From contig CAYGFK010000001.1 in NCBI GenBank assembly GCA_964349135.1, positions 10,717 to 74,716 of the forward strand: a DNA stretch of 64,000 nt. The letters are read 5' to 3'. Source of the stretch: an uncultured Candidatus Saccharibacteria bacterium (lineage in GTDB: Bacteria; Patescibacteriota; Minisyncoccia; Phycocordibacterales; DSPV01). Position numbers and translations under genes: made by a program. This document shows, one piece after another, positions 12,676 to 59,809 of this stretch; within the stretch, counting starts at the first letter, position 1, and each line of letters begins with the position of its first letter. Below the pieces are notes generated by a model. It was not told the DNA's origin and made no database searches. It saw only the letters and a list, made by a program, of their open reading frames with translations.

Positions 12676-13593
12676 ATGGCAAACAGGCACCTTTCACGTT
12701 CAGTCGCACTGCAGACCCTCTTCGAGTGGGATACGAGGAATGTTCTCGAGAGTGATATGCAGAACGTTATGGAGCGCAACATCATTGAGTTCGCGCCGGG
12801 TCTTGGCGACTCTGATTTTGCAGAAAGACTTATCAGTACCGTGCTCGGGAAGCATACCGACCTCGATACTATTATTCAAAAAGCGGCACCCGATTGGCCG
12901 CTCGAAAAGATTTCAACGGTAGACCGCAACGTCCTTCGTATAGGGCTTGCGGAACTTTTATTCTCGGACAGAAAAGAAGTCCCGGCTAAAGTGGCTATCA
13001 ATGAAGCGATTGAGCTTGCGAAGACGTTTGGTGGCGAGAACAGTGGCAAGTTTGTCAACGGTGTGCTCGGTAGCGTTTATAAAGAGCTTGGCGAGCCGGG
13101 AAAAGATGAAGAGTCGAAGCATAAAAAGAATCAAATCACGCTTCAGCGTTTAGCGGGTGCTATTGTGTACGCGCAACACTCTGGAGCAACGTACGTTGCC
13201 TTGGTGCACGATGTGTTCGGACACTGGACCCTTTCGAAGGGAGGTGTTGAAGAAGGTGAAGACTTGGAGAAGGGCGTTGTGCGCGAGCTCAAGCAGGAAC
13301 TCGGTCTCAAGCATCTTAAGGTGAAGGACCGTTTGGGCGAGAACCAGTATATGGCGAGCCATCCTGAAAAAGGGAAACTACTGAAACAGGTCTCGTACTT
13401 TCTTGTTGAGTCGAAATTCGAGGACATTAAACTTGAAGAGAAGGGGGGGCTCGATGACGCGCGTTGGTTTAAGCTTGCCGATATCGTGGACCTCAATTTT
13501 TACGATGATATCTTGCCAATTGTGACGAAGGCGGTTACTATGCTCCTTGCCGTCGGTACAGGCGGTAAGAGGAAGAAGAACGTTACCAAGTAA
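12676..13593 (+). CDS. nusB: NusB antitermination factor fused to a C-terminal Nudix hydrolase domain
   Basis: Residues 1-140 match NusB (VPAKVAINEAIELAKTFGGENSGKFVNGVL). Residues about 160-300 carry the Nudix box GGVEEGEDLEKGVVRELKQELGL. It is one continuous 305-aa ORF. Confidence 0.8.
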   Translation: MANRHLSRSVALQTLFEWDTRNVLESDMQNVMERNIIEFAPGLGDSDFAERLISTVLGKHTDLDTIIQKAAPDWPLEKISTVDRNVLRIGLAELLFSDRKEVPAKVAINEAIELAKTFGGENSGKFVNGVLGSVYKELGEPGKDEESKHKKNQITLQRLAGAIVYAQHSGATYVALVHDVFGHWTLSKGGVEEGEDLEKGVVRELKQELGLKHLKVKDRLGENQYMASHPEKGKLLKQVSYFLVESKFEDIKLEEKGGLDDARWFKLADIVDLNFYDDILPIVTKAVTMLLAVGTGGKRKKNVTK

Positions 13594-14418: not shown

Positions 14419-16677
14419 ATGTATCTGAAGGGCCTTGAGCTCTCCGGTTTCAAGTCGTTTGCCAAGAAGACTTCTCTTGGCTTTTCTTCGCCTATCACTT
14501 CTATTGTCGGTCCGAACGGTTCGGGAAAATCAAATGTGGCGGAAGCATTCAGGTTTGTTCTTGGCGAGCAATCCATCAAGTCGCTTCGTGGAAAACGTGG
14601 TGAAGACCTCATCTTTAACGGTTCACGCACCATTGGTCGGCAAAATCGCGCTTCCGTAAAGATTACTCTCGACAATTCAAAGCGTCTGCTCGACATTGAT
14701 TTCGATGAGGTGACCATCGAGCGTATCGTGCATCGCGACAATAATAATGAGTATCTCATCAACGGTAGCCAGGTTCGTCTTAAAGATATTCTGGAGCTTT
14801 TGGCGCAGGCGCATATGGGTCCGACAGGACACCACATCATTTCGCAGGGTGAAGCAGACCGAATTCTTAACGCGAATCTTAAAGAACGGCGACTTATGGT
14901 TGAGGACGCTCTCGGACTCAAGATTTACCAATTCAAGCGTACCGAATCTGAACGCAAGCTTGAGCGGACGCGTGAGAATATCACACAAGTCGAGTCACTG
15001 CGTCGCGAACTTGCGCCACATCTACGGTTTCTGAAGAAACAGGTTGAGAAGATAGAGAAGGCTAAAGAGCTTAAGAAAGCGCTTGCAGAACTTTACGTCG
15101 AATATCTGTCGCTTGAGCGCGCGTACCTTAGAGAGGCCGAACAGACGCTTTCTCGGGAATCGGAAGAGCCAACCAAGAAACTTGCCGAACGTGAGCATGA
15201 CCTTGCGCGCGCAAAGAAGATGCTTGAGCGCTCAAAGACGGGAGATGATAAAAGCACGCAGGTACTTGCAAGCGAGAAGGCGCTTAGGGATTTGCGGAAT
15301 CAAAAAGATGAGCTTTTGCGGGAAGTAGGGAGACTTGAAGGAGAACTTTCTGCCGAAGACCGACGATTGAAAAAACTTACGGATGAGAACGAAGCCGATA
15401 CGCACAAAACAGTCCCGCTTTCCGAAGTTCGGGCACTTGCCGGCGATATTGGGTCCCGGCTCGCTCGGGTTGAAGCAGTGTCTGATGTGTCGATGTTTCG
15501 GCAATTCATTTCCGAGATGAAAACAGTGCTTTCAGGTTTTCTCAAGCGTTTTGAAAGTGCTACGTCTACCGGCGCGCTTGAAGATGCGGTTCGGGGAATT
15601 GAACGTATCAAGACAGAGAAAGAAGAGGTGTCCGGGCGTGTCATTGCGATACAGGAGCGTGAGCGCGAGGAGCATGGAAAGTACGAGGCGCTTCGAGCTG
15701 ATATTGAAAAGGAGAAAGATGAAGGACGTGATGCCGAGCGGGAGATATTTCGTATCATGGCCGAGCAGAATGAGCTACGCGCCATTCTCAATAGTATCAA
15801 GGGCCGAGAGGCGTCTCTTTTGCTTGAGCGGGAAGAGTATAAACGAGAAGAACAAGAAGCCGTAGCCCTCGTAGGTCCGGAAACCGTTCGACGTTCGCAT
15901 GAGGCGGAGGTACCGTCTGTGCTTTCTGACCGCACCACACAACATGAACGTCGTCGGAATCTTGAGAAGATGAAAATTCGTCTTGAGGAGACGGGAAGCG
16001 GAGCCAGTGAAGAAACATTGAAGGAGTTTGAAGAAGTCTCACAACGGGATGCGTTTCTTGAACGTGAAGTCGGCGACCTGAATCGTTCGGCGGAATCCCT
16101 CGAAGTCCTCATCAAGGATTTAACTGCCAGACTCGACATTGAATTCAAGGAGGGAGTGAGGAAGATAAATGTGCAATTTGAAGAATTCTTTAAGCTCATG
16201 TTTGGTGGCGGAAGCGCTTCGCTTGAGGTTGTTCGTCCGGAGAAGCGACGCTCAAGCATGGCGGATGAGTTGTTCGCGACTGAGGCGGGCGCCCTGGTCC
16301 CTCAGGATGAAGAGGAGACTGAAGAGGGAATTGAGATACGAGTAAATTTGCCTCACAAGAAGATTCGCTCGCTTGAAGTCCTCTCGGGTGGTGAGCGTGC
16401 ACTTACCTCTATCGCCCTTCTATTCTCGATTTCACAGGTGAATCCGCCCCCGTTTATTATTCTCGATGAAACTGACGCGGCGCTTGATGAAGCCAACTCA
16501 AAGAAATACGGCGATATGATTGAAAACCTTTCGAGCTATTCTCAACTCGTGCTCATTACCCACAATCGCGAGACGATGTCTCGTGCCAGCGTGCTCTATG
16601 GAGTGACTATGGGGCAGGACGGGATATCGAAGCTTCTCTCTATTCATTTCGACGAGGCCGTGAAAGTTGCCAAATAA
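14419..16677 (+). CDS. smc: SMC-family chromosome-segregation ATPase, short form (752 aa) with no recognisable hinge
   Basis: N-terminal head with GPNGSGKSN. C-terminal head with LSGGERALTSIAL and ILDETDAALD. The middle is all charged coiled coil. Confidence 0.8.
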   Translation: MYLKGLELSGFKSFAKKTSLGFSSPITSIVGPNGSGKSNVAEAFRFVLGEQSIKSLRGKRGEDLIFNGSRTIGRQNRASVKITLDNSKRLLDIDFDEVTIERIVHRDNNNEYLINGSQVRLKDILELLAQAHMGPTGHHIISQGEADRILNANLKERRLMVEDALGLKIYQFKRTESERKLERTRENITQVESLRRELAPHLRFLKKQVEKIEKAKELKKALAELYVEYLSLERAYLREAEQTLSRESEEPTKKLAEREHDLARAKKMLERSKTGDDKSTQVLASEKALRDLRNQKDELLREVGRLEGELSAEDRRLKKLTDENEADTHKTVPLSEVRALAGDIGSRLARVEAVSDVSMFRQFISEMKTVLSGFLKRFESATSTGALEDAVRGIERIKTEKEEVSGRVIAIQEREREEHGKYEALRADIEKEKDEGRDAEREIFRIMAEQNELRAILNSIKGREASLLLEREEYKREEQEAVALVGPETVRRSHEAEVPSVLSDRTTQHERRRNLEKMKIRLEETGSGASEETLKEFEEVSQRDAFLEREVGDLNRSAESLEVLIKDLTARLDIEFKEGVRKINVQFEEFFKLMFGGGSASLEVVRPEKRRSSMADELFATEAGALVPQDEEETEEGIEIRVNLPHKKIRSLEVLSGGERALTSIALLFSISQVNPPPFIILDETDAALDEANSKKYGDMIENLSSYSQLVLITHNRETMSRASVLYGVTMGQDGISKLLSIHFDEAVKVAK

Positions 16678-28704: not shown

Positions 28705-28705
28705 A

Positions 28706-28736
28706 AAAACGGCGCTCCAGAAGGAGCGCCGTTGTG
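28706..28736. terminator. Hairpin terminator after rpoD
   Basis: acggcgctccAGAAggagcgccgt flanked by an A-run and a T-run. Confidence 0.6.
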
Positions 28737-28998
28737 TATTAAATCATGACGGACGGGTCGTCACTTCTAAGCGCCATGATAAGCCTTTCAGCGCTTTTTC
28801 TGGCGTCTGTTTCGATAGACTCACCCTTACGGAGGGGGCGGCCGGTGATGGGGAATGTTCTGGATGTTCGCTTCGGTGTTTCTATGGTGAGCGGTAATCC
28901 CGTTCGATAATCACGTAGGGTGCTAAATTGTTTTTTCATTCTGCCCGTCAGTATAGAACCTGTCTCATCGATAGGCAAGTTGGTATATACTGGATTCG

Positions 28999-31917
28999 AT
29001 GAAGACTGATAAATTTGCAGAGGCGTACCGAAAACTCAATCAAAAACAGCGGGAGGCCGTAGACGCCATTGACGGGCCGGTTATGGTTATTGCTGGTCCG
29101 GGAACGGGCAAGACGACCATTCTTTCTCTGCGCATTGCGAATATTCTACGGAAAACCGACTCGCCTCCGGACGCTATTTTGGCGCTGACCTTTACCGAAT
29201 CAGGGGTCCGTTCGATGCGAAAGAAACTTCTTGAGGTCATCGGACCACGAGCGTATCGCGTTCACGTACACACGTTCCACGGTCTTGCCAATGAAATTAT
29301 CAAGACGTATCCCGACAAATTTCCGCGTATTATCGGGTCTGAGCACATCGAAGACCTTGAGCAGATACGACTTGTTGACGAACTTCTCGGGAAAGGGGAA
29401 TACGAATATCTGAGACCTAAAGGAGACCCGCTCTACTATGTGCGTAAGATTATCGATGTGGTGAAGAACTTGAAGAAGGACGGGATTTTGCCCGATGCGC
29501 TTGAAAAAAGGGTCTCCCTGGAGGAGCAGGAAATTCTCTCGGCGCACGATTTGCGACACGAATCGGGTCGGTACGCGGGTGAGATGAAGGGGGCCTATCG
29601 TGAACGTCTCGAGTCAATCGCAAAGAATAAAGAGCTTGTTCAAGCGTACCGTGACTATGAGTTACTTCTCGAGAAATCGCGTCTCTACGATTATGAAGAT
29701 ATGATTTCAGAGGTCGTCAAGGCGCTTGAAAGTGATTCGGATTTGCGACTCCGGCTTCAGGAAGAGTATCAGTATGTCTTGGCTGATGAACACCAGGATG
29801 CCAACAAATCGCAGAATCTTTTCCTTGAGTTGCTAAGCTCATTCCATGAGAACCCCAATTTATTCGTCGTAGGGGACGAAAAACAGGCGATATTTCGTTT
29901 TCAAGGCGCCTCACTCGAGAATTTTTTGTACTTTAAGAGTCGATTCCCGACGACAAAACTTATTGTACTCGACGAGAACTTTCGTTCGCATCAAATTATA
30001 CTCGATGCAGCCCACGCTCTCATTGAGCATAATACGGTAGATGACCGTTCTCTCCGAACTGAGCTGAAATCTGTTCGGAGTATCGCGCCCGAGAAGCTTG
30101 TTGTGGCAGAGGCACCCGACCGTCTCTCAGAGCTCTTCTATATCGCAGAAAGGATTACTGAGCTCCGGTCAAAAGGGGTTCCCCTTAAAGAAATGGCGAT
30201 TTTGGTTCGGGATAACGCGCATGCCGGACCGGTGGAACATGAGCTCCGTCGTCACGGTATCAGTGTCGCTCGGCTTGCGAGTGCGGATGTGCTCGGTCAC
30301 CCGTACCTCGATGGCTTTTTGACACTGATGCAGGCCGTGTCGACCCCGGCTGATGAGTCGATATTTATACGCGCTGCTTTCGTCGGATTTCTGAAGGTTG
30401 ACCCGATTGCCTTGTCACGAATTCTCTCGCGCCGATTGCGTGGAGAACCTTTGCTTGAACTCCTTGCCAAACACCAAGAGACTAAAGCATTTGCCGCGCA
30501 TTTTCGTTTGTTTGCCGAGCTCGCACATCGCGAACCGCTCGTTGAGGCATTCGAACGCATTGCACTCGAATCGGGATTCATTGATTTTCTTGTTGCTCAC
30601 ACTCGTTCACATGAACTCCTTCCGCTCTATGCCGGCCTTCTTGACGCCGTGGTTCGGCACGCGGAGCGAGATAAAAAAGCGACCCTAGCTGATTTCATGA
30701 GACGCCTTGAGAGTGCTCGGGCTCATGGACACACGATTGCTGTTTCTCCACTGCCACCTGAAGGTGTACAGCTTCTGACGGCGCACGGTTCGAAAGGACT
30801 TGAGTTTGACCATGTCTTTATCGTGCATGTTCTTGATGGGATATGGGGAGGCCGGAAATCTCGAAGCGCTTTTTCTATTCGTGGCGTAGGTTCTCTCGGG
30901 TCTGATATTGAGGATGAACGCCGTCTTTTTTATGTGGCTCTCACACGAGCTCGACAGTCGGTAACGCTCTCGTTTTTTGAACATACCGAGGACGGTAAAG
31001 AAAAGAGTCCGTCGCAGTTTGTCGCCGAGCTCGCGCTCGAACATGTGCAACGTAAACTGGTCGAACCCATTTCTCTCGAATCAGCGGTGAAGCCGACGCC
31101 CGGCCCGAAGACGGGAGCGTTCGACAAATCCTATTTGAACGGACTGTTTCTTGAACGAGGATTTTCAGTTACGCATCTCAATAACTATCTATCATGTCCG
31201 TGGAGATATTTCTTTGTCGATTTGCTTCGCGTACCAAAACCTTTAGAATCCTCGGCAATCTACGGTCTTGCAATGCACGGCGCATTGAAATATTACTTTG
31301 ATGCCTACGCGCGTGAAGAGGATGTAACCGTGTCTCAAGTGGCTTCCTTCATTGAAAATCTTTTATGGCGTAGTGCGCTTTCAGACAAAGATTTCAAGCA
31401 ACACGCTCGAGAAGGTAAAAAGGAGGTCCAAGGGTATCTCCAGTCTCGCCATTTTTCTCGAGCCATTTTTAATGAAATGCGCATTTCAGGGGTGCCGTTT
31501 TCAATCGGGGATACGGAGATTGTACTTACCGGAATACTCGACAAAGTTGAAATGATGGAGGGTTCGTCGGTTCACGTCATCGATTATAAAACCGGAACCC
31601 CAAAAAGTCGGAATGACATACTTGGTAAAACAAAGAATTCAGACGGAAATTACCATCGTCAACTTCTGTTTTATAAGCTGTTGTTAGACCAATACAAGGA
31701 CGGGGAGTGGAAGATGAAGGCCGGTACCATTGATTTTATCAAGCCGGATAAGAAAGGAAGTTACCACAGCGAGACGTTCGATGTTGCAGATGGTGACGAG
31801 AAAGTTGTTGCAGAAGAAATACGACACGCTGCCCGTGAAATTCTCGAGCTCTCTTTTTGGGAACGTTTTTGCGACGACCGTTCTTGCCCGTGGTGCCGGC
31901 TACGGCGACAACTGTGA
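28999..31917 (+). CDS. UvrD/PcrA-type superfamily 1 helicase fused to a C-terminal RecB-family (PD-(D/E)xK) nuclease domain with a 4-Cys Fe-S cluster signature
   Basis: SF1 motifs GPGTGKTT, DEHQD, Q-motif. C-terminal HVIDYKTG (DxK), QLLFYKLL (QxxxY). Cys at LSCPWRYF plus C-x5-C-x2-C (FCDDRSCPWC) at the extreme C-terminus. Confidence 0.8.
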   Translation: MKTDKFAEAYRKLNQKQREAVDAIDGPVMVIAGPGTGKTTILSLRIANILRKTDSPPDAILALTFTESGVRSMRKKLLEVIGPRAYRVHVHTFHGLANEIIKTYPDKFPRIIGSEHIEDLEQIRLVDELLGKGEYEYLRPKGDPLYYVRKIIDVVKNLKKDGILPDALEKRVSLEEQEILSAHDLRHESGRYAGEMKGAYRERLESIAKNKELVQAYRDYELLLEKSRLYDYEDMISEVVKALESDSDLRLRLQEEYQYVLADEHQDANKSQNLFLELLSSFHENPNLFVVGDEKQAIFRFQGASLENFLYFKSRFPTTKLIVLDENFRSHQIILDAAHALIEHNTVDDRSLRTELKSVRSIAPEKLVVAEAPDRLSELFYIAERITELRSKGVPLKEMAILVRDNAHAGPVEHELRRHGISVARLASADVLGHPYLDGFLTLMQAVSTPADESIFIRAAFVGFLKVDPIALSRILSRRLRGEPLLELLAKHQETKAFAAHFRLFAELAHREPLVEAFERIALESGFIDFLVAHTRSHELLPLYAGLLDAVVRHAERDKKATLADFMRRLESARAHGHTIAVSPLPPEGVQLLTAHGSKGLEFDHVFIVHVLDGIWGGRKSRSAFSIRGVGSLGSDIEDERRLFYVALTRARQSVTLSFFEHTEDGKEKSPSQFVAELALEHVQRKLVEPISLESAVKPTPGPKTGAFDKSYLNGLFLERGFSVTHLNNYLSCPWRYFFVDLLRVPKPLESSAIYGLAMHGALKYYFDAYAREEDVTVSQVASFIENLLWRSALSDKDFKQHAREGKKEVQGYLQSRHFSRAIFNEMRISGVPFSIGDTEIVLTGILDKVEMMEGSSVHVIDYKTGTPKSRNDILGKTKNSDGNYHRQLLFYKLLLDQYKDGEWKMKAGTIDFIKPDKKGSYHSETFDVADGDEKVVAEEIRHAAREILELSFWERFCDDRSCPWCRLRRQL

Positions 31918-32856: not shown

Positions 32857-33639
32857 GCGCTCGTATTAGGACTTGTTCAGGGAGTTACGGAGTTCATCCC
32901 GGTCTCTTCTTCGGGTCACCTTATTCTCGTGCGCGATTTCTTTGGTATTGTCGCTACTCCTGCCGACCTCGCCTTTGATGCCGTACTTCAGTTAGCCACG
33001 GCAATATCTGTGGCTTGGTATTTCAGGAAAGACCTCATCAACTTGCTCTTGGCGTTTGGGCGCAAACTTCAAGGACACCATGTGGACGAGGAATATCGCG
33101 TGCTCTTTCTTTCACTTGTACTTGGCACGATTCCTGCTGTACTCGCAGGACTCTTACTCGAAGATTCGATGGAGACACTCTTCCGTTCCAGCACGCTCGT
33201 TGCGTGGACGCTCATTGTCGGTGCCGTGCTCATGTATTCGGCAGACCGCATAGGGTCGCAAAAAGACGGACTCACGGTTAGGAAGGGTTTCTTTGTAGGT
33301 CTATTTCAAGTCCTCGCGCTTGTGCCGGGAATCTCGCGTTCAGGGGCCACTATCTCTGGAGGTCTCTTTGCCGGTCTGAATCGGGAGAATGCAATTCGAT
33401 TCAGTTTCCTTCTTGGATTTCCGATTCTTTTCGGTTCGGGTATAAAAAAACTCCTTGAGTTGCTTAGCGCGGGGGCGCTCGACACTCTCGGCGCATCTCT
33501 TGTTATTGGCTCAATTGCCGCGTTTGTATCAGGACTTGCCGCCATCCATTTCCTTGTCTCGTATCTAAAACGGCACGGTCTCAGTGTCTTTGTATTCTAC
33601 CGTGTAGCGCTAGCCGTTCTCATTCTCGTATTTCTCTAA
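32839..33639 (+). CDS. uppP: Undecaprenyl-diphosphatase
   Basis: MDSILQALVLGLVQGVTEFIPVSSSGHL is a canonical UppP/BacA N-terminus. Confidence 0.9.
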   Translation: MDSILQALVLGLVQGVTEFIPVSSSGHLILVRDFFGIVATPADLAFDAVLQLATAISVAWYFRKDLINLLLAFGRKLQGHHVDEEYRVLFLSLVLGTIPAVLAGLLLEDSMETLFRSSTLVAWTLIVGAVLMYSADRIGSQKDGLTVRKGFFVGLFQVLALVPGISRSGATISGGLFAGLNRENAIRFSFLLGFPILFGSGIKKLLELLSAGALDTLGASLVIGSIAAFVSGLAAIHFLVSYLKRHGLSVFVFYRVALAVLILVFL

Positions 33640-34205
33640 AACAAAGCCCCTGTCTTGTTGGCAGATGGTGCCTCCCATGACGAGGTGTCGAGTTTGAAAT
33701 CTTTAACGGTCCCGTTGTCGAGATAGCTAAGTTTGCCGTTTTTGCGAGCATAGTCATACAGTTCTTTAGTGATGCGCACGTCTTCAATGCAGTATTTTCG
33801 TAATTTCTCTATCTGGCCCTCGTTCCACCACTTGATAGCATCAAGGCCGTGTCCGATTTTCTTCTTGCCGAGTGTTGCCTCGGCGAGCGTATCGAGTTTA
33901 ATGCGTCGTCCGAGCGAGTGGCGCACTTCTTTGAGGAGGTCGAGACTTCGTATCTTTGTCAGGTCTCCACGATAGTATTTATTCAGACAGGGGATATCAA
34001 AGTGGTCAGAATTGAAACCGATAAGCAGGTCAGCTTTTTCAAGAATAGGCCACAGGTTCTCGAGTTCCTCTTCTAGGTAACTTGAATAGGTATCTGATTC
34101 TGAATCGTAGATGCAGACGATGGACATGTCGAGGTCGGCCGGATTGTTTGAGCCGACATCGGTGAAGATGTTTTTTGTTTCGATATCAAAAACTACCTTT
34201 CGCAT
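33636..34205 (-). CDS. DEDD-type 3'-5' exonuclease (RNase H-like fold)
   Basis: FDIET...(Exo I), FNSDHFDIP (Exo II), YCIEDV (Exo III). Confidence 0.6.
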   Translation of the reverse strand: MRKVVFDIETKNIFTDVGSNNPADLDMSIVCIYDSESDTYSSYLEEELENLWPILEKADLLIGFNSDHFDIPCLNKYYRGDLTKIRSLDLLKEVRHSLGRRIKLDTLAEATLGKKKIGHGLDAIKWWNEGQIEKLRKYCIEDVRITKELYDYARKNGKLSYLDNGTVKDFKLDTSSWEAPSANKTGALF

Positions 34206-34226: not shown

Positions 34227-35180
34227 TTACTTGAGAGGTAGAGCGTGAGTTACCAGGAAATCCCGAAGGGTTACGTCGCCCATGCCGAAGCCGACGGTGG
34301 GAACTGGCTCAGCGTCAAATAGTTCCATGAGGTTGTCATACCGACCCCCTCCGAAGAGTGAGCGACGGTTTTCTTCATGGGTGTCGAATACTTCGAATAC
34401 CATACCGGTATAGTAGTCGAATCCTCGAACAAGGGTCGGTTCATAGATGACGTTAGTGATACCTGCGGAGGTGAGTGCTTCAAGGACATCCGTTGGTCCG
34501 TTGCTTGCACTGAGCACGAACTCTTTGTTGGAGAACTTTGTCCATTCCGCGGTGAATTCCTCGTCGGTGATTTTGTTCTTCTTATCTATGAGTCGCATCG
34601 CTTCGGGTAGGGTTAGCGGGTCCTTGAGAAGTCCCGATATCTCCTTTTCGCTGTGTGCGCGGTTATTAATCTTGATTTGAAAATCCTGCTCCTTGGCACC
34701 AAACGCTTTCATAAGGTCGTAGGCGAGCTTTATGATTTCAACGTCGGCTTCTGTCCCTGCGATTCCCATGAGGTCGCAGTTGAGTTGCCAGTGTTCACGA
34801 CGTCGGCCGCGTTGAGGCCTCTCGTACCGGAAACAATTGGCGATGGTGAACCAGCGAAGAGGGAACTCTCTTTGGAGTTCTCGTCGTTTGGCGGCGACCA
34901 TACGAGCAAGACTCGGAGTCATTTCAGGTCTCAAGGCCACCTCACGGTCTCCTTTATCGCGGAAGAGGTACATTTGGTCGTTGACGATTTCGTCGCTTCC
35001 CTTGCGTCGGTAAAGTTCGGCGTACTCAAGAATCGATGAGCTGTACTCAGCGTAACCGGCTTTTTCGACCGTTTTTCGCCACGTAGAGAAGATATAGTTT
35101 TGGACTGCCATATCCTCGGGGTAAAAATCCCTAACGCCTTTATAGGGCTCTGTAGAAAGTTTATTTACTTTTTCTGACAT
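34227..35180 (-). CDS. hisS: Histidyl-tRNA synthetase catalytic core with no anticodon-binding domain (317 aa; HisZ-like architecture)
   Basis: GVRDFYPED, ALRPEMTPSLARMV, motif 2 FRYERPQRGRRREHWQ, motif 3 GGGRYDNL. The ORF ends right after motif 3 and the next gene is the unrelated exonuclease. Confidence 0.75.
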   Translation of the reverse strand: MSEKVNKLSTEPYKGVRDFYPEDMAVQNYIFSTWRKTVEKAGYAEYSSSILEYAELYRRKGSDEIVNDQMYLFRDKGDREVALRPEMTPSLARMVAAKRRELQREFPLRWFTIANCFRYERPQRGRRREHWQLNCDLMGIAGTEADVEIIKLAYDLMKAFGAKEQDFQIKINNRAHSEKEISGLLKDPLTLPEAMRLIDKKNKITDEEFTAEWTKFSNKEFVLSASNGPTDVLEALTSAGITNVIYEPTLVRGFDYYTGMVFEVFDTHEENRRSLFGGGRYDNLMELFDAEPVPTVGFGMGDVTLRDFLVTHALPLK

Positions 35181-50214: not shown

Positions 50215-52095
50215 TTATGTAAAGCTCTCCGGGTCTACCGATAATTCTGCCGATGGGGGAAGTGAGCGGAGTATTGAGAGAATTCGTTCATTGGGCCACT
50301 CTTTTGCGGGTATCTTCATGACGCCGGATAGACCAGATTTGTTCTTTGCTTGTTTAAGAAAGACCGGGAAGATGTCTATTTCTTGAGGTGCAAGCGCTTG
50401 GACAAGTGCGTGCATCTCTTTACTGATTACCTCTTTCTGGCCGGAAAGGGTTATCTTTATCGGCACGGAAAATGGGGGATAGAGTAGTGTTTTGCGTAGT
50501 GCCAATTCGCCCTGAAAGAACGAGCTCAGGCTTCCTTCCGCAAAACTTGCAAGCGCATGAGAGTTTTCTGTTCGTGTTTGAATGATAAATTCTCGTTCCG
50601 CGAATTCAATTAAGTTTCCAAGGAGATAGCTGACACGTTCGTTTATGCGAAAATCAGGTATTGAGAAGAGTTCGTCAATCGAGGCGATAGCAACTGTACC
50701 CACGGGAGCTAAGAGATACGGGAGCATGAATTCGGTTCCAACAAGAACACTTCCGGGGGAGTTATAAAATTTCTCGATAAGCGCTTTCGCCTGTTTTCTG
50801 TTGGTTACCGATTCAGAATCCATTCTGATGACGACAAGGTCGTCGAAGACCTCATGGAGTTCTCGTTCGACGAGTTCAGTCCCGATGCCGAACGTGGCGA
50901 GTTTCCAACTGTTGCAGGAGGCGCACCTAATCGACGCATCTATTTTTTCTCCGCACCGGTGACAGAGGAAAAACCGGTTTTTTTCAGAAGTTCCGTGAAG
51001 TACGGTCGGGTGACCACATACGCTACAGGAAAGCAGGGTGCCACAATCTCCGCATATGGTTGTTGGGGCGAGCCCTTTTCTCCCGGCAAATACAATGACA
51101 CGGTCTGCAGAGGCTCGAGCGGTACGTATCTTTTCAATGAGTTCATCCGAGAGTGCGCGAGGCACACCTTTCAGACTTGGTTTATACGGCTTCATGTCGA
51201 TAAGGGAGACTCGAGATTTGGTGCTACGTCTCCATTTCAGCGGGACGAGTTCATCGATTTCATGCTCGTAGTACCGTTCAATAAGCGCGCTTGATAAAAT
51301 GGTATCTCCGAAAATGAGGCGTGCATGGGCGTGCCGGGCGTACGTACGTATGAAGAAACGGAAATCGATGAAAGGTCGGTTTCGTTGTTTATATGACGCA
51401 GAATTCTCGCGCTCTACGATAATGGTCCCGGCGCGGTCTGCGGCAATGCCGATGAATCCGGGAGTTGAGACCATAAGGAGCGGATGCGTTTCTTTATATA
51501 TTCGTTCGATATCAAGTGTCAGTGCGCGTAGTGTCTTTTTGCTGTGCAGCAGGAGCGAATACTCTTCGATACCTTTTGAGAGTTTTTCGAGAGCCGTTTC
51601 TGCTTCTTGTATCGTCGGGACGAGGAAGAGCACAGACTCTTTATGCCTGAATGCTTCGCGGATGAGAGAGCGGTATTGGCTGAACCTCTCCTCACTGTCG
51701 TTTTGGATTGCCTGCAGGGTCGGACGGGCAGTAGGCGCCGGCTCATGACGGGCTTCCGGGATTTTTTTGATGAGATTGAGCGGAAGAAGCGCGGTAAGTG
51801 TCGCTCCGAACGGAGCCGCATAGAATCGAGAGGTCTCCCGGGCTGCGGTAATGAAGGCGTCGCTTGAGAAACGCGGAGAGATGATTTTCCCAACTTTCTT
51901 CATTGAGAATGACGACGATTTAATTGACGTCTTTTCTTCACGGGCCTTTTTTGCCCCGATAACGAGTCCTGTCACGCTCTTCGAGCGAAGAGGGATATGC
52001 ACAAGACTGCCGATAGGTATTTCCTGCGCGCTGAAATACGTGAGGGTGTCGGCCCACACGCTTTTCTCGAGCGGGATGACCTCTATAATATGCAT
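50215..52095 (-). CDS. priA: Primosomal protein N' (replication restart helicase)
   Basis: Helicase core and Zn-binding CGDCGTLLSCSVCGHP...CHRCG...CASCNS. Confidence 0.9.
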   Translation of the reverse strand: MHIIEVIPLEKSVWADTLTYFSAQEIPIGSLVHIPLRSKSVTGLVIGAKKAREEKTSIKSSSFSMKKVGKIISPRFSSDAFITAARETSRFYAAPFGATLTALLPLNLIKKIPEARHEPAPTARPTLQAIQNDSEERFSQYRSLIREAFRHKESVLFLVPTIQEAETALEKLSKGIEEYSLLLHSKKTLRALTLDIERIYKETHPLLMVSTPGFIGIAADRAGTIIVERENSASYKQRNRPFIDFRFFIRTYARHAHARLIFGDTILSSALIERYYEHEIDELVPLKWRRSTKSRVSLIDMKPYKPSLKGVPRALSDELIEKIRTARASADRVIVFAGRKGLAPTTICGDCGTLLSCSVCGHPTVLHGTSEKNRFFLCHRCGEKIDASIRCASCNSWKLATFGIGTELVERELHEVFDDLVVIRMDSESVTNRKQAKALIEKFYNSPGSVLVGTEFMLPYLLAPVGTVAIASIDELFSIPDFRINERVSYLLGNLIEFAEREFIIQTRTENSHALASFAEGSLSSFFQGELALRKTLLYPPFSVPIKITLSGQKEVISKEMHALVQALAPQEIDIFPVFLKQAKNKSGLSGVMKIPAKEWPNERILSILRSLPPSAELSVDPESFT

Positions 52096-53618
52096 TAGAG
52101 CTCTCGCAAAATCTTAATTTTCGCACCAAGCTTTGCGAGTCGCTCGGCGATGTCTTCGTAACCGCGATTGATGGAATAGATATTTCTGAGAATCGATGTC
52201 CCTTCTGCACCGAGCATACCGATGAGTACGATGGCTGCGGGGCGGAGCGCCGGAGGGCAGATTATCTCATTTGCTTTGAGTTTTGTCGGACCGTTGATAA
52301 AGACGCGGTGAGGGTCGGCGAGAATAATGTCGGCACCGAGGCGGTCAAGTTCTTTGTAATGAATAGCGCGCGCTTCGTAGACCCAATCATGAATGAAGGT
52401 TTGTCCTTTCGCTTGAGTTGCGATGATGGCGAAGAAGGGAAGGTTGTCTATGTTCAGACCGGGGTATGGTCGAGCTTCGATTTTTTCGTCGAGTGCGGTG
52501 AGTTTTGAAGGAAATGTCTCAATGTCGACAAGCGCGGTCTGTCCGTTCTCAGACATATACGGTTTGCTCTTTTTGAATCGAAATCCCATCTTCTTGAGTT
52601 TCAGGAGCTCAAGCTCAAGAAAATGTATCGGACAGCGTTTTATGGTCAGGTTTGATTTGGTCACGATAGCAACCGCAAGCATGAACATGGATTCAATAGG
52701 GTCTTCGCTTAGGTGGTAGCGCGCCTTCACCTCAATATCCGGTTTGCCGTGCACCACGAGCGTGGTTGTGCCTATTCCGTCTACCTGTACGCCGAGCTCA
52801 TGAAGGAAGAAACAGAGGTCCTGAATTTGATAGTTCGCCGATGCGTATTTGATGGTTGTGGTTCCTTTAAACCGTGCGGCCGCCATCAGGACGTTTTCGG
52901 TTACCGTATCGCCTGATTCGTAGAGAATGATTTCACGACTCTTTGGTTTGCCGACCGTGACTCGGTGACCGGCACCAGAGGTTTTAATAGAAACGCCAAG
53001 GTTTTCAAGAGCGTAGAAATGCGGGCGCACTGTGCGTTTGCCAAGCTTACAACCTCCCGATTGCGGAAGAAAGAAGCTTTTTGCGATATGCATCAAAGGC
53101 CCGATGAGCATGATGACACTCCGTGTTTTTTGCGCTGATGCCACATTGATTGTAGAAAGTGAGAGTTTAGACGGCGGTTTGATGATAAGGTCGCTGTTTA
53201 CCCATCGAACTGAAACACCGATAGATTGCAGAACTTCAATCATGCGATACACCTCTTCTATTCTCGGCACGCTTACGAGCGTTGTTTCTCCTTTGTTGAG
53301 GAGTGCGGCGCAAATAAGACCCATCGCGGCATTTTTCGATGTCTTTGTGGTGATAGTTCCTGAGAGTGGGTGTCCGCCTTCGATTTCGAGATTGATGGCA
53401 CCATCGCCGATATGAATGATGTCTTTATTGAGAATGTTGCTGATGCGGGAGAGGAGGGAGGCGCTGACGTTTTGCGTTCCACTCTCGATGCGAGCGACAG
53501 CGCTCTGTGTCGTACCCAGACGCTTTGCAAACGCGTCTTGAGTGACACCACGCTCTTCGCGGAGATTTTTAATCAAGGAACCCAGCACAGAGAGCTGTTT
53601 GTTAGGTTTAGTAGGCAT
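52095..53618 (-). CDS. murA: UDP-N-acetylglucosamine 1-carboxyvinyltransferase fused to an N-terminal XRE-family HTH domain
   Basis: The first ~70 aa form a Cro/C1 HTH (LREERGVTQDAFAKRLGTTQSAVARIESG). The rest aligns end-to-end with MurA, including active-site Cys (GGCKLG) and C-terminal IYSINRGYEDIAERLAKLGAKI. The ATG at 53618 follows an in-frame TTG. Confidence 0.85.
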   Translation of the reverse strand: MPTKPNKQLSVLGSLIKNLREERGVTQDAFAKRLGTTQSAVARIESGTQNVSASLLSRISNILNKDIIHIGDGAINLEIEGGHPLSGTITTKTSKNAAMGLICAALLNKGETTLVSVPRIEEVYRMIEVLQSIGVSVRWVNSDLIIKPPSKLSLSTINVASAQKTRSVIMLIGPLMHIAKSFFLPQSGGCKLGKRTVRPHFYALENLGVSIKTSGAGHRVTVGKPKSREIILYESGDTVTENVLMAAARFKGTTTIKYASANYQIQDLCFFLHELGVQVDGIGTTTLVVHGKPDIEVKARYHLSEDPIESMFMLAVAIVTKSNLTIKRCPIHFLELELLKLKKMGFRFKKSKPYMSENGQTALVDIETFPSKLTALDEKIEARPYPGLNIDNLPFFAIIATQAKGQTFIHDWVYEARAIHYKELDRLGADIILADPHRVFINGPTKLKANEIICPPALRPAAIVLIGMLGAEGTSILRNIYSINRGYEDIAERLAKLGAKIKILREL

Positions 53619-53665
53619 CAAGACATTATAGCATAGATGCTATATCTTGCATATCTGGAATCTGG
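53619..53665 (-). promoter_or_regulatory. Putative promoter with an overlapping 18-bp palindromic operator (TATAGCAT-AG-ATGCTATA, 53627-53644) immediately upstream of HTH-murA
   Basis: Minus-strand reading is ATGCAA-17-TATAAT-GTCTTG-ATG. The palindrome covers the spacer and the -10 box. Confidence 0.45.
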
Positions 53666-53929: not shown

Positions 53930-54943
53930 ATGGCGTTTTTCTCAAAAAAATTAGGTATTGACCTTGGTACGGCAAACACCCTCGTATTTGTTCCCGGCAA
54001 AGGAGTCATTCTCAATGAACCGTCGGTAGTCGCACTTTCCGAACCGGACCGACGAATACTTGCGGTTGGTGTTGAAGCGAAGCGCATGATTGGCAAGACG
54101 CCGGAGAGCATTATCGCGTACCGACCCATGAAGGACGGTGTGATTGCCGACTACCGAGTGACGGAGACGATGCTTCGTTATTTTATACAAAAAGCACTCG
54201 GTCGCTGGAATATTATGAAGCCGGAAGTAATGATTTCCGTGCCGGCAGGTATCACGTCAACAGAACGCCGTGCCGTTATTGAAGCGGCTATTCGTGCCGG
54301 CGCGAAAAATGCGTATGTGGTCAAAGAGCCGATTCTTGCCGCTATCGGCGCGGGTATTCCTATTCATGAACCGGTTGGCCACATGGTCGTGGATATCGGA
54401 GGTGGTACCACTGACGTTGCTGTCATTTCACTCGGTGGCATCGTGGCATCGACATCCGTGAAATGCGCCGGAAATCGAATTGATTCGGCAATCGCTGACT
54501 ATCTTAAGAAAACGTACAATCTCGCTATCGGAGACAAAATGGCGGAAGATATCAAAATACAAATCGGTTCGGCGCTTCCTCTCGAGGAAGAGCTTTCAAT
54601 GATGGTGAAGGGGAGAGATTTTGTTACCGGCCTTCCTCGTTCGACAGAGTTCAAGACGAATGAGGTTGTCAAAGCCATCGGTCGTGAATTACGCGAAATG
54701 GTGAAGGCAATACGCGAAGTGCTTCAGGAGACACCTCCGGAGCTTGCGGCAGACATCATTGAGCGTGGCATTATTATGACCGGAGGAACTTCTCAATTAC
54801 GCAATTTGCCGGAACTTATTTTCCGTCGCACGGGTGTGCCTTGTAAACTGGCGAAAGATGCGCTCTTTTGTGTTGCGCGCGGTACCGGTGTTGCTCTAGC
54901 GCATCTCGAAAGCTACAAGAAAGCCATCGTCGCCAAGCGGTAG
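53930..54943 (+). CDS. mreB: Rod-shape actin homolog MreB (copy 1, stand-alone)
   Basis: LGIDLGTANTLVFV..., DIGGGTTDVAV, ATPase core. Confidence 0.9.
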   Translation: MAFFSKKLGIDLGTANTLVFVPGKGVILNEPSVVALSEPDRRILAVGVEAKRMIGKTPESIIAYRPMKDGVIADYRVTETMLRYFIQKALGRWNIMKPEVMISVPAGITSTERRAVIEAAIRAGAKNAYVVKEPILAAIGAGIPIHEPVGHMVVDIGGGTTDVAVISLGGIVASTSVKCAGNRIDSAIADYLKKTYNLAIGDKMAEDIKIQIGSALPLEEELSMMVKGRDFVTGLPRSTEFKTNEVVKAIGRELREMVKAIREVLQETPPELAADIIERGIIMTGGTSQLRNLPELIFRRTGVPCKLAKDALFCVARGTGVALAHLESYKKAIVAKR

Positions 54944-57498: not shown

Positions 57499-58755
57499 AT
57501 GCGCCAGTCAGAGCTATTCACTAAAACACGAAAAGAGGCCCCAAAGGATGAATTATCCAAGAATGCGAAGCTTCTTATCCGTGGAGGATTTATTCATAAG
57601 GAAATGGCGGGTGTGTACTCGTTTCTTCCGCTTGGATTGCGCGTGCTCGATAAGGTAGTGAATGTGATTCGTGAAGAGATGAACGCCGTTGGCGGGCAGG
57701 AGGTGCACTTGTCGACACTTCAAAGTAAGGAAGCGTGGGAAGCAACCGGACGATGGGACGACAAATCAGTCGATACGTGGTTTAAGACATCACTGCGCTC
57801 TGGTGGCGAAATCGGTCTTGGTTTTACGCATGAAGAGCCTATGACACGAATGATGCGGGAGCATGTGCGTAGTTTTCGCGACCTACCGGTATACCCATAC
57901 CAATTTCAAATGAAGTTTAGGAATGAGGAGCGCGCGAAGTCAGGGCTTATGCGAACCCGTGAATTTTTAATGAAAGACCTCTATTCAATTTCTCGAGATA
58001 CCAAAGAGCATGAGCGTTTCTATGAGACGATAACTCTGGCGTATAAAAAGGTGTTTGAACGTCTTGGCATTGGCCCGTTTACGCATCTTACCTATGCGTC
58101 AGGCGGTTCGTTTAGCAAATATTCTCACGAGTTTCAGACGCTTTGTGAGGCCGGGGAAGACACCATTCATCTCTGCCGGGACTGTGGCGTGGCGGTGAAT
58201 GAGGAAATACACAGCGAACAGAACACGTGCCCTCAGTGTAAGAGCGAAGCGCTTGTTGAAAAGAAGGCGGTTGAGGTAGGTAATATATTTTCGCTCGGTA
58301 CTCGCTTTTCTGAAGCACTCGGGCTTGTGTATGTGGATGAACGGAATGAATCAAAGCCTGCCGTGATGGGCAGTTACGGTATTGGTCCGGGACGATTGAT
58401 TGGTACCATTGTTGAATTGTTTTCTGATGAAAAGAGCATTCTCTTCCCGAAGAGTATCGCTCCTTTCTCGGTACACCTCTTGCTTCTTGATACGGACAAT
58501 GAAAAAGCGCGTACGCAGGCGGAAATCCTCTACAATGAACTATCCGCTGATGGCATCGACGTTCTCTTTGATGACAGGCCTTCGCGTGCAGGAGAGAAGT
58601 TCGCGGACGCAGACCTCATTGGTATTCCGCTTCGTCTTGTCGTGAGTGAACGTACGCTCAAAGAGGACGCTATAGAAGTAGTAAACCGTCGGGGTGGGGA
58701 TGTCTCCCATGTGCCGGCGAAGAAAATAAAAGGGTATCTGCATGAACATCTTTGA
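57499..58755 (+). CDS. proS: Prolyl-tRNA synthetase, minimal bacterial-type without the INS editing domain (418 aa), with a CxxC-x13-CxxC insertion
   Basis: LLIRGGFIHKEMAGVYSFLPLGLRVL, motif 2 FRNEERAKSGLMRTREFLMKD, and an anticodon-binding domain. CRDCG...CPQCK replaces the loop before GNIFSLGT. Confidence 0.85.
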   Translation: MRQSELFTKTRKEAPKDELSKNAKLLIRGGFIHKEMAGVYSFLPLGLRVLDKVVNVIREEMNAVGGQEVHLSTLQSKEAWEATGRWDDKSVDTWFKTSLRSGGEIGLGFTHEEPMTRMMREHVRSFRDLPVYPYQFQMKFRNEERAKSGLMRTREFLMKDLYSISRDTKEHERFYETITLAYKKVFERLGIGPFTHLTYASGGSFSKYSHEFQTLCEAGEDTIHLCRDCGVAVNEEIHSEQNTCPQCKSEALVEKKAVEVGNIFSLGTRFSEALGLVYVDERNESKPAVMGSYGIGPGRLIGTIVELFSDEKSILFPKSIAPFSVHLLLLDTDNEKARTQAEILYNELSADGIDVLFDDRPSRAGEKFADADLIGIPLRLVVSERTLKEDAIEVVNRRGGDVSHVPAKKIKGYLHEHL

Positions 58756-59809
58756 GGAACAAATCGAAAAACTCTACCGGCTTTTTTCGCACGACTTAGG
58801 AATTGACCTTGGTACGGCAAATACGCTTGTCTACGTACGGGGGAGGGGCATTGTGGTCAATGAACCTTCGGTTGTTGCGCTCAATCAGAAAACCGGACAG
58901 GTGGTTGCTGTCGGCAATCAGGCCAAAGCCATGCTCGGCAGGACACCGCCTCATATCAGCGCGATTAGACCGCTTGTTGAGGGTGTCATCTCGGATTTCG
59001 AAGTGACGGAAGAAATGATTTCGTACCTTATGAATCGCGCGCAGGAAGGGGGGCGCAAGTATTTCGGTCCTCGCGTTGTGGTTGGTGTGCCGTCCGGGGT
59101 GACGAACGTCGAGTCGCGCGCCGTGCGTGATGCAACAAAGAATAGTGGGGCACGCGAAGTGTACATTGTGGAACAGCCAATGGCTGCGGCAATCGGCATC
59201 AGACTTCCGGTCAAGGACCCGGTGGGGAATATGATTATCGATATCGGCGGTGGAACTACCGATATTGCCGTTTTGTCGCTTGGCGGAACCGTTCGTTCTC
59301 GAAATCTAAAGACTGCTGGTGACCATTTCAATAACGATATCGTGTCGTACATCAGAAATGAGTTTAAAATACTGATTGGTGAGAAGACGGCAGAGCAGAT
59401 TAAGATTGCTATCGGTTCGGCAATGCATGAAGGGGAGTCGATGGAAGCGGTTGTGAAAGGCCGTGATTTGGTGACAGGTCTGCCTCGAGAAGTGGTGGTG
59501 ACTGATGCGGATGTTCGAGAGGCGATTGGTCAATCGGTGGACACCATCGTTGAGGCGACACGAGAAGTTCTTGAAAAGACACCGCCCGAGCTGGTGTCGG
59601 ACATTATGCAAAAAGGTATCTTTCTTGTCGGCGGGGGCGCGCTCCTCAAAGGTCTTGCCAAATTCCTCGAACAGAATTTGCGAATTCCGATTCATGTTGC
59701 TGATGACCCGCTGACGGCCGTTGCCCGTGGGGCAGGCATTATTCTTGAGGATATGGACCGTTATAGAGATACTCTGATTCACTATGAAGAGGATGATAGG
59801 GCTGGCTAG
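58742..59809 (+). CDS. mreB: MreB (copy 2, heading the mreBCD-mrdA operon)
   Basis: LGIDLGTANTLVYV, DIGGGTTDIAV. Sequence is distinct from copy 1. Confidence 0.9.
   Translation: MNIFEEQIEKLYRLFSHDLGIDLGTANTLVYVRGRGIVVNEPSVVALNQKTGQVVAVGNQAKAMLGRTPPHISAIRPLVEGVISDFEVTEEMISYLMNRAQEGGRKYFGPRVVVGVPSGVTNVESRAVRDATKNSGAREVYIVEQPMAAAIGIRLPVKDPVGNMIIDIGGGTTDIAVLSLGGTVRSRNLKTAGDHFNNDIVSYIRNEFKILIGEKTAEQIKIAIGSAMHEGESMEAVVKGRDLVTGLPREVVVTDADVREAIGQSVDTIVEATREVLEKTPPELVSDIMQKGIFLVGGGALLKGLAKFLEQNLRIPIHVADDPLTAVARGAGIILEDMDRYRDTLIHYEEDDRAG

Follow-up and report, generated by a model that had tools for sequence, protein, structure and literature searches.

A single-chain UvrD-like helicase with a C-terminal four-cysteine PD-(D/E)XK nuclease domain in the Patescibacteria

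Can one polypeptide in a very small bacterial genome both unwind DNA and cut it? The question is raised by an open reading frame (ORF) on a 64-kb stretch of DNA from an uncultured Candidatus Saccharibacteria bacterium (contig CAYGFK010000001.1; the whole stretch that was analyzed is called the window). In the ORF list of the window, the gene lies at 28999..31917 (+), stop codon included, and encodes 972 amino acids from an ATG start. A preliminary description, made from the letters alone, had read the product as a UvrD-type motor joined to a nuclease; the ORF is real, and all motifs quoted there are found at their places. A protein identical to this helicase-nuclease (P0001) is present on contigs from ENA, Logan, and NCBI. 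The single chain carries an intact superfamily 1A (SF1A) motor, an intact PD-(D/E)XK active site, and cysteines in a 1+3 arrangement, and its gene has no adjacent partner. Our best explanation, held with about even confidence, is a stand-alone helicase-nuclease of the UvrD-Cas4-like fusion family, encoded by a vertically inherited core housekeeping gene of Patescibacteria (the candidate phyla radiation, CPR) and serving as a minimal end-resection enzyme.

The N-terminal two-thirds of the protein assume the layout known from UvrD, PcrA, and Rep (domains 1A/1B/2A/2B). The UvrD-helicase domain (PF00580, residues 13-317, 29035..29949, +; Pfam E 1.4e-56) comprises domains 1A/1B. The UvrD_C domain (PF13361, residues 322-661, 29962..30981, +; E 1e-31) comprises domains 2A/2B with motifs IV, V, and VI, and its match covers profile positions 1-349 of 350. 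We located the Walker A motif AGPGTGKT (residues 32-39, 29092-29115, +), the DExQ motif as DEHQD (residues 263-267, 29779-29805, +), motif III as VVGDEKQAIFRFQGAS (29866..29913, +; R300, F301, Q302, G303, and A304 invariant), motif V as TAHGSKGLEFD, and motif VI as YVALTRAR. Motifs Q, I, Ia, II, III, IV, V, and VI are all intact and invariant in the conservation alignment, which comprises 45 members with 42-62% identity. The complete SF1A motor of the preliminary description is thus borne out.

Judged from its sequence, the motor is of the UvrD/PcrA type and much closer to UvrD/PcrA than to AdnB. Against solved structures, residues 1-690 find their best sequence and structural matches in UvrD/PcrA/Rep (Deinococcus radiodurans UvrD, 4e-57; PcrA, 1e-50; Escherichia coli UvrD and Rep, ∼1e-45), whereas the sequence matches to AdnB (5e-20), AddA (3e-16), and RecB (1e-7) are much weaker. 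The NCBIfam ranking is likewise headed by PcrA, Rep, and UvrD, yet with 224-263 bits versus cutoffs of 911-1144 (PcrA TIGR01073, 263 versus 911.2; Rep TIGR01074, 242.1 versus 951.45; UvrD TIGR01075, 223.8 versus 1144.45). The scores for recB (141.3 versus 696 bits), addA (107.8 versus 707.65), and addB (addB_Gpos, 24 versus 903.7) also stay below their equivalog cutoffs. Therefore, the protein is no ortholog of PcrA, UvrD, Rep, AddA, RecB, or AddB.

We modeled the whole chain with AlphaFold2 on the 45-sequence alignment (predicted local distance difference test (pLDDT) 85.7; predicted TM-score (pTM) 0.78). In Foldseek, this model matches UvrD/PcrA with E ∼1e-39; its best matches over the whole chain are AddA and AdnB, with a TM-score over the query (TMq) of 0.55-0.57, and the Mycobacterium tuberculosis UvrD1 dimer structure is also among the matches of the protein. 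When motif III is aligned by hand, F301 appears to fall at the position of the aromatic “pawl” (Trp325 in AdnB, Phe422 in RecB), a residue that stacks on nucleobases (PMC13000450).

Motor and nuclease are connected by a ∼60-residue linker that fills the gap between the Pfam domains (residues 662-721, 30982..31161, +) and is modeled as short helices and strands with a pLDDT of 60-93. This linker stands where UvrD/PcrA have their C-terminal domain. In contrast to UvrD, PcrA, and Rep, the C-terminal region of the window protein is replaced by a nuclease of 250 amino acids.

The nuclease belongs to the PD-(D/E)XK “iron-staple” type (PDDEXK_1, PF12705, residues 722-969, 31162..31905, +; E 6.8e-25) and scores 88.9 bits versus a gathering cutoff of 22. 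It features motifs II (GILDKVE, with D848) and III (VIDYKTG, with D862 and K864) at 31525..31596 (+) and the QhxxY motif RQLLFYKLL (Q888, Y892) at 31657..31683 (+). The catalytic residues D848, D862, K864, Q888, and Y892 are invariant in the 45 homologs, as are H760 and E826. The same holds on a broader basis, in the 85 loci used for all locus analyses: the QhxxY motif is found in 85 of 85, and the D-x-K motif is kept in every one, including the variants FDFK, YDYK, and SDYK.

The fold agrees with this assignment. The C-terminal 273 residues, modeled alone on a 24-sequence alignment, reach a pLDDT of 93.3, and their fold agrees with that of solved iron-staple members; AdnA and AddB are the top Foldseek matches, each with ∼1e-7 (AddB TMq 0.6). 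A phmmer search of the C-terminal 282 residues alone against PDB sequences gave no match; the 24-sequence profile of the domain matches only AdnA in the PDB. D862 aligns to AdnA D934, the residue that is altered in the nuclease-dead AdnA(D934A) structures. The nearest solved relatives are thus the Fe-S-bearing nucleases of AdnA, Dna2, the Cas4 family, and AddB, not the cluster-free nucleases of AddA and RecB. The domain is no CRISPR-associated Cas4 (TIGR00372, 23.7 bits versus a cutoff of 65), and the genes around it are housekeeping genes, not CRISPR-cas genes.

The 972 residues contain exactly four cysteines. Cys733 (codon 31195..31197, +), in the context LSCPWRYFF, is the N-terminal metal ligand candidate, and C958, C963, and C966 form a triad at the C terminus (CDDRSCPWC, 31870..31896, +). 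All four are invariant (45 of 45) and, as the candidate ligand positions, constitute the only cysteine columns conserved throughout the alignment; other cysteines occur sporadically, with a median of two per ∼990 residues. Around Cys733, the motif N.[YF][LI].C is present in 85 of 85 loci, and the C-terminal triad has the spacing C-x4-C-x2-C in 82 of 85, the exceptions being one C-x3-C-x2-C, one C-x2-C-x2-C, and one copy truncated by its contig. This conservation points to strong selection on the four-cysteine site, whose residues are putative metal ligands. Two findings would have refuted the preliminary description, a C-terminal domain of some other fold and cysteines that vary among orthologs; both were looked for, and neither was observed.

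An iron staple is defined by one cysteine N-terminal and three cysteines C-terminal to a RecB-type nuclease (PMC3378879; PMC3466216), a topology also known from Cas4 (PMC4176176) and satisfied here by C733 together with C958, C963, and C966. The preliminary description had likened the four cysteines to those of AddB and Cas4 and given the terminal motif as C-x5-C-x2-C. The likeness stands for the topology, and it fails for the spacing: the Cas4 protein Pcal_0546 has a C-x2-C-x5-C triad (C200/C203/C209; PMC4176176), and the motif itself, CDDRSCPWC, reads C-x4-C-x2-C. Therefore, the UvrD-nuclease family has a motif variant of its own.

Which of the known helicase-nucleases does this protein resemble? 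Its nuclease is closest to AdnA by sequence profile and fold, and each Adn subunit also places a motor before a nuclease, with an SF1A motor that has an aromatic residue at the pawl position of motif III. AdnAB, however, is a heterodimer with divided labor and two nucleases, whereas the window protein is one chain without a partner gene. The earlier comparison with one AdnAB subunit holds for the order of motor and nuclease; the motor, however, is AdnB-like and active and the nuclease AdnA-like and of the Fe-S type, which makes the protein a mosaic and not the duplicate of a single subunit. It shares with Bacillus AddAB the 1+3 cysteine staple that surrounds the RecB-type nuclease of AddB (PMC3378879). 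In contrast, the helicase domain of AddB is dead, AddB works together with AddA, and the complex is regulated by Chi. Eukaryotic Dna2 and bacterial Bad, both nuclease-helicases that have an Fe-S cluster, carry the nuclease at the N terminus of an SF1B motor that runs 5′-to-3′; the window protein has the reversed order and an SF1A motor of the 3′-to-5′ class.

The architecture as such is not new. Hudaiberdiev et al. 2017 (BMC Evol Biol 17:232; PMC5704561) described Cas4-like nucleases of pfam12705 fused to a UvrD-like helicase. These fusions form the largest branch of pfam12705, and their helicase parts are monophyletic and distinct from ordinary UvrD (PMC5704561). The window protein has the identical architecture, with an N-terminal UvrD-like SF1 helicase and a C-terminal four-cysteine PD-(D/E)XK nuclease of pfam12705 in one chain. 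Moreover, a conjugative Hymenobacter plasmid encodes a protein with which it is colinear from end to end (E 4e-116, 30% identity), and therefore the CPR proteins belong to the known UvrD-Cas4-like fusion family. The plasmid protein has the same cysteine, in the context LKCP, but a C-x2-C-x2-C triad in place of C-x4-C-x2-C.

The nearest relatives outside the CPR are those on Hymenobacter plasmids. One plasmid (L086; NZ_CP095057.1 61447-78250) encodes a fusion of 1062 amino acids beside an “RNaseH domain-containing protein,” a large ATP-binding protein, and conjugation genes. On a second (L087; NZ_CP010055.1 97129-111971), the helicase (599 amino acids) and the PD-(D/E)XK nuclease (458 amino acids) are encoded by separate adjacent genes near DUF262 and umuD. 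The fusions usually occur with genes of Type III restriction-modification (RM) or with Dcm/Vsr and are otherwise stand-alone or in non-conserved contexts, and their proposed role is ancillary unwinding and cleavage, analogous to RecB/AddB (PMC5704561). A defense-type context is thus typical for the family but not obligatory. The Patescibacteria clade, in contrast, consists of a syntenic housekeeping gene. What is new here is the family's wide distribution in Patescibacteria in a syntenic housekeeping context, the structural proximity of its nuclease to AdnA, and the distinct spacing of its triad.

How far does the gene extend beyond this genome? Among 5.8 billion proteins searched, thousands proved to be relatives. 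The same three Pfam domains occur in each of the best 120, whose lengths are 857-1042 amino acids; where named, they come from metagenome-assembled genomes (MAGs) of Paceibacterota, Parcubacteria, or Patescibacteria. Their annotation in IMG and NCBI is limited to “ATP-dependent DNA helicase” or “DNA helicase II/PcrA.” When 1.84 billion cluster representatives were searched exhaustively with a profile, 1,206 clusters matched at E<=1e-30, in all of which the nuclease domain lies at the extreme C terminus; shorter entries vary in their N-terminal length, consistent with fragments at contig edges. With the nuclease-domain alignment as query, a scan in which each GTDB species was represented by a single genome confirmed at least 587 loci, the best 80 of which are Patescibacteria, many with candidate-phylum labels. 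The nuclease is fused to the helicase in all 85 loci analyzed (909-1070 amino acids, median 999), and the domain occurs in 3 of 72,556 plasmid records and 1 of 50,697 phage records. The family is thus essentially one of Patescibacteria/CPR; as part of the stand-alone helicase-nuclease explanation, and with the same even confidence, we regard it as a core gene of vertical inheritance.

Three records labeled Methanosarcinales archaeon or Gammaproteobacteria (L018, L084, and L085) carry typical members whose nuclease domains are 37-44% identical to that of the query; these MAG contigs are probably mislabeled or contaminated. In a Nomurabacteria MAG (L033:5575-10792), a 2.1-kb insertion between motifs V and VI interrupts the gene and contains two paralogous ORFs of 243 and 293 amino acids with identical N-terminal hydrophobic leaders. 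Either the gene is disrupted here, or it encodes a protein in two pieces.

The genomic context bears on the choice between a housekeeping and a defense role. The window and three relatives (43-53% identity, on contigs of 0.67-1.0 Mb) have the gene order rpoB-rpoC-dnaG-rpoD-[gene]-DsbA-like(-)...RNaseH-like exonuclease(-)-hisS(-) in common. Among loci with enough flank, rpoD lies directly upstream in 22 of 58 and the DsbA-like gene directly downstream in 20 of 68. Clustering of 770 neighbor ORFs yielded only housekeeping families (rpoD, dnaG, rpoC, hisS, truB, RNase J, bipA, obg, pheST, and others). No RM, Dcm, Vsr, or other defense genes are among the recurrent neighbors in the 85 loci, no second helicase-nuclease subunit is among the clustered ORFs, and no paralogous subunit is encoded within 6 kb. 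The conserved housekeeping synteny, seen in about a third of the loci, therefore marks a housekeeping gene rather than a gene of a defense island. Because no partner subunit is adjacent in any of the loci, the gene may rightly be called a lone gene, as it had been before.

Co-transcription with rpoD was considered and is unlikely, because a hairpin follows the rpoD stop codon and an antisense ORF lies in the 295-bp gap between the two genes (28705..28998). The hairpin (28708-28733) is a perfect one of 11 bp that lies between an A-run and a T-run. The small ORF on the minus strand (28739..28978) encodes 79 amino acids from a TTG or 66 from an ATG; a promoter-like site at 28978..28950 belongs to it, and an NCBIfam scan, the only one made for it, gave no match. 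Relatives hold unrelated small ORFs in the equivalent gap upstream of the helicase-nuclease gene.

Two other nucleases are found near the gene. A solo Cas4-like PD-(D/E)XK nuclease of ∼260-330 amino acids adjoins it in 5 of the 85 loci (L030:10841-11680, L035:4973-5776, L026:6756-7535, L067:451-1233, and L021:11393-12379). Of four whose cysteines were inspected, three show a CxxC...CxxC pattern and one shows C...C-x6-C-x2-C. The two proteins may form a lineage-specific functional pair. In the window, a 189-residue 3′-5′ exonuclease of RNaseH fold (33636..34205, -; PF13482) sits two to three genes downstream of the helicase-nuclease gene, co-oriented with hisS, and is syntenic in 26-27 loci. 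It matches the DNA_pol_A exonuclease domain and, more weakly and below threshold, a PolB-related exonuclease; NCBIfam gave no match for it. This exonuclease may be functionally linked to the helicase-nuclease.

How would such an enzyme work? To our knowledge, the characterized UvrD, PcrA, AddA, and AdnB motors all move 3′-to-5′ on the bound strand. In AdnAB, the 5′ strand goes to the Fe-S nuclease of AdnA and the 3′ strand to the AdnB motor (PMC13000450), and the Fe-S subdomain at the fork holds the strands apart (PMC13000450; PMC8789073). Cas4 enzymes are 5′-to-3′ exonucleases on single-stranded DNA (PMC3466216; PMC4176176). We favor a model of 3′ tracking and 5′ cutting because of the polarity of UvrD-type motors and because AdnA, AddB, Dna2, and Cas4 cut 5′-ended single strands. 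The motor would load on the 3′-ended strand and track along it 3′-to-5′, while the metal-stapled nuclease, hanging off domain 2A, would thread and cut the displaced 5′-ended strand. Because there is no second nuclease for the 3′ strand, resection would leave a 3′ single-stranded tail without a Chi-type switch, and RecO/RecR could then load RecA on this tail. The protein would thus be a one-polypeptide minimal enzyme of end resection or flap processing with which bacteria of very small genome size repair breaks and gaps, and it probably also covers some general UvrD/PcrA duties.

The repertoire of the lineage is compatible with this model. No recBCD-, addAB-, or adnAB-like gene (neither recC nor recD in particular) and no second UvrD-like or PD-(D/E)XK paralog is encoded in the 64-kb window, which for RecBCD and AddAB agrees with the preliminary description. 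Literature searches on the RecBCD, AddAB, and UvrD content of Patescibacteria returned nothing direct, and only the supplement of Nelson & Stegen 2015, a table of Parcubacteria core genes, was usable. This table, restricted to core genes, lists recA, recO, recR, recJ, recG, and ruvC and has no entries for RecB, AddA, or exonuclease V (Nelson & Stegen 2015), a pattern in keeping with a need for some other resection activity in this lineage. The earlier proposal of DNA-end processing without RecBCD/AddAB, although plausible, was nevertheless overstated, as its only basis is the 64-kb window and this core-gene list.

Several points weigh against the resection model. In AddA, AdnB, and RecB, the C-terminal nuclease of the motor subunit cuts the 3′ tracking strand, and here the strand predicted to enter the nuclease is assigned from homologs only. 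Monomeric UvrD-type motors such as UvrD, Rep, and PcrA are usually weak helicases without a partner. RecJ is a core protein in Parcubacteria, so a 5′ nuclease for resection is already there (Nelson & Stegen 2015). The spacing of the triad is unlike that of characterized Fe-S nucleases, and the related four-cysteine nuclease 3L0A was crystallized with zinc (PMC3466216). Literature searches found no enzymology of any single-chain family member. Finally, the absence of RecBCD/AddAB and of a separate UvrD covers the 64-kb window only.

The main rival holds that the gene encodes the general UvrD/PcrA of the lineage, acting in nucleotide excision repair turnover with UvrABC, mismatch repair, removal of RecA filaments, and the clearing of replication-transcription conflicts, with the nuclease as a mere accessory that degrades, for example, the excised or unwound strand. 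It would account for a motor that is far closer to UvrD/PcrA/Rep than to AddA/RecB/AdnB and for the “DNA helicase II/PcrA” labels in IMG and NCBI. Furthermore, uvrA and uvrC are encoded in the same window, neither the window nor 1.3 Mb of related loci contains another UvrD-like ORF, and the gene stands by rpoBC-dnaG-rpoD in about a third of the loci. However, the scores fall far below the PcrA, UvrD, and Rep equivalog cutoffs, and the protein is colinear with fusion proteins outside the CPR, one of them on a plasmid. The helicase parts of the fusions also form a monophyletic group of their own, apart from ordinary UvrD (PMC5704561). Because the nuclease residues and the four cysteines are invariant, nuclease action would be central rather than accessory, and we consider this rival unlikely, though not negligible.

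Given the context data, two further explanations are less likely still. The protein might be an anti-phage or anti-plasmid effector that unwinds and shreds foreign DNA, a role proposed for fusions that have Type III RM or Dcm/Vsr genes as neighbors. Defense loci are the commonest contexts of the fusion family (PMC5704561), the 30%-identical colinear homolog stands on a conjugative plasmid beside an RNaseH-domain protein and a large ATPase, a solo Cas4-like nuclease adjoins the gene in a few loci, and the helicase models of PADLOC (GajB) match the motor. The PADLOC matches, however, are to generic UvrD helicases, with no model for a nuclease or a particular system, so assignment to a known defense system was rejected. 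The CPR neighbors are housekeeping genes whose synteny is conserved at 40-55% identity, without recurrent defense genes, and phage and plasmid records hardly contain the gene, which renders a defense role improbable. A two-subunit machine like AddAB or AdnAB, in which the partner is encoded elsewhere in the genome or is a second copy of the protein (a homodimer like the ancestor of AdnAB before its duplication), is equally improbable. Motor and nuclease are laid out alike in AdnA and AdnB, AddA and AdnB are the best structural matches over the whole chain, UvrD-family motors often need dimerization, and the UvrD1 dimer is among the matches, but addAB and adnAB genes are normally adjacent, and two paralogous subunits encoded together were found neither within 6 kb in the 85 loci nor in the window, which has no second family member.

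The helicase-nuclease gene is embedded in a window made up of housekeeping genes throughout, among them uvrA, uvrC, dnaE, thrS, smc, RNase III, trmD, rpoBC, dnaG, rpoD, priA, and mreB, and some of these genes are unusual in themselves. The HisRS-like gene (34227..35180, -) encodes only 317 amino acids without an anticodon-binding domain (hisS, 270 bits versus a cutoff of 286.75), whereas its syntenic orthologs in related genomes have 414-441 amino acids with HGTP_anticodon; there is no space for the missing domain, because the next gene begins 22 nucleotides away. A NusB-NUDIX hydrolase fusion is encoded at 12676..13593 (+), an SMC protein of only 752 amino acids at 14419..16677 (+), and an HTH_3 domain fused to a MurA-like enzyme of EPSP-synthase fold at 52095..53621 (-). 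Two MreB paralogs lie within 5 kb (53930..54943, + and 58742..59809, +), the second followed by mreC and a PBP2-like transpeptidase.

At present, the outcome is a correct, somewhat refined annotation of a family that is already catalogued and biochemically uncharacterized. A bolder claim, which we put forward tentatively and consider rather doubtful, is that the protein is both the sole UvrD-family helicase and the sole resection machine for double-strand breaks in Patescibacteria, a Chi-independent “minimal resectosome” of one chain or a homodimer, resembling the ancestor of AddAB/AdnAB before duplication and equipped with a variant C-x4-C-x2-C metal site. If the 3′-tracking, 5′-cutting mechanism favored here is right, Patescibacteria, which make up a very large share of bacterial diversity and have genomes of <1 Mb, would need only a single protein to initiate recombinational repair, whereas model bacteria use machines of two or three subunits for this step. 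The enzyme would then offer a compact system for the coupling of an SF1A motor to a strand-specific nuclease, and the “UvrD/PcrA” entries in CPR metabolic reconstructions would actually be a helicase-nuclease.

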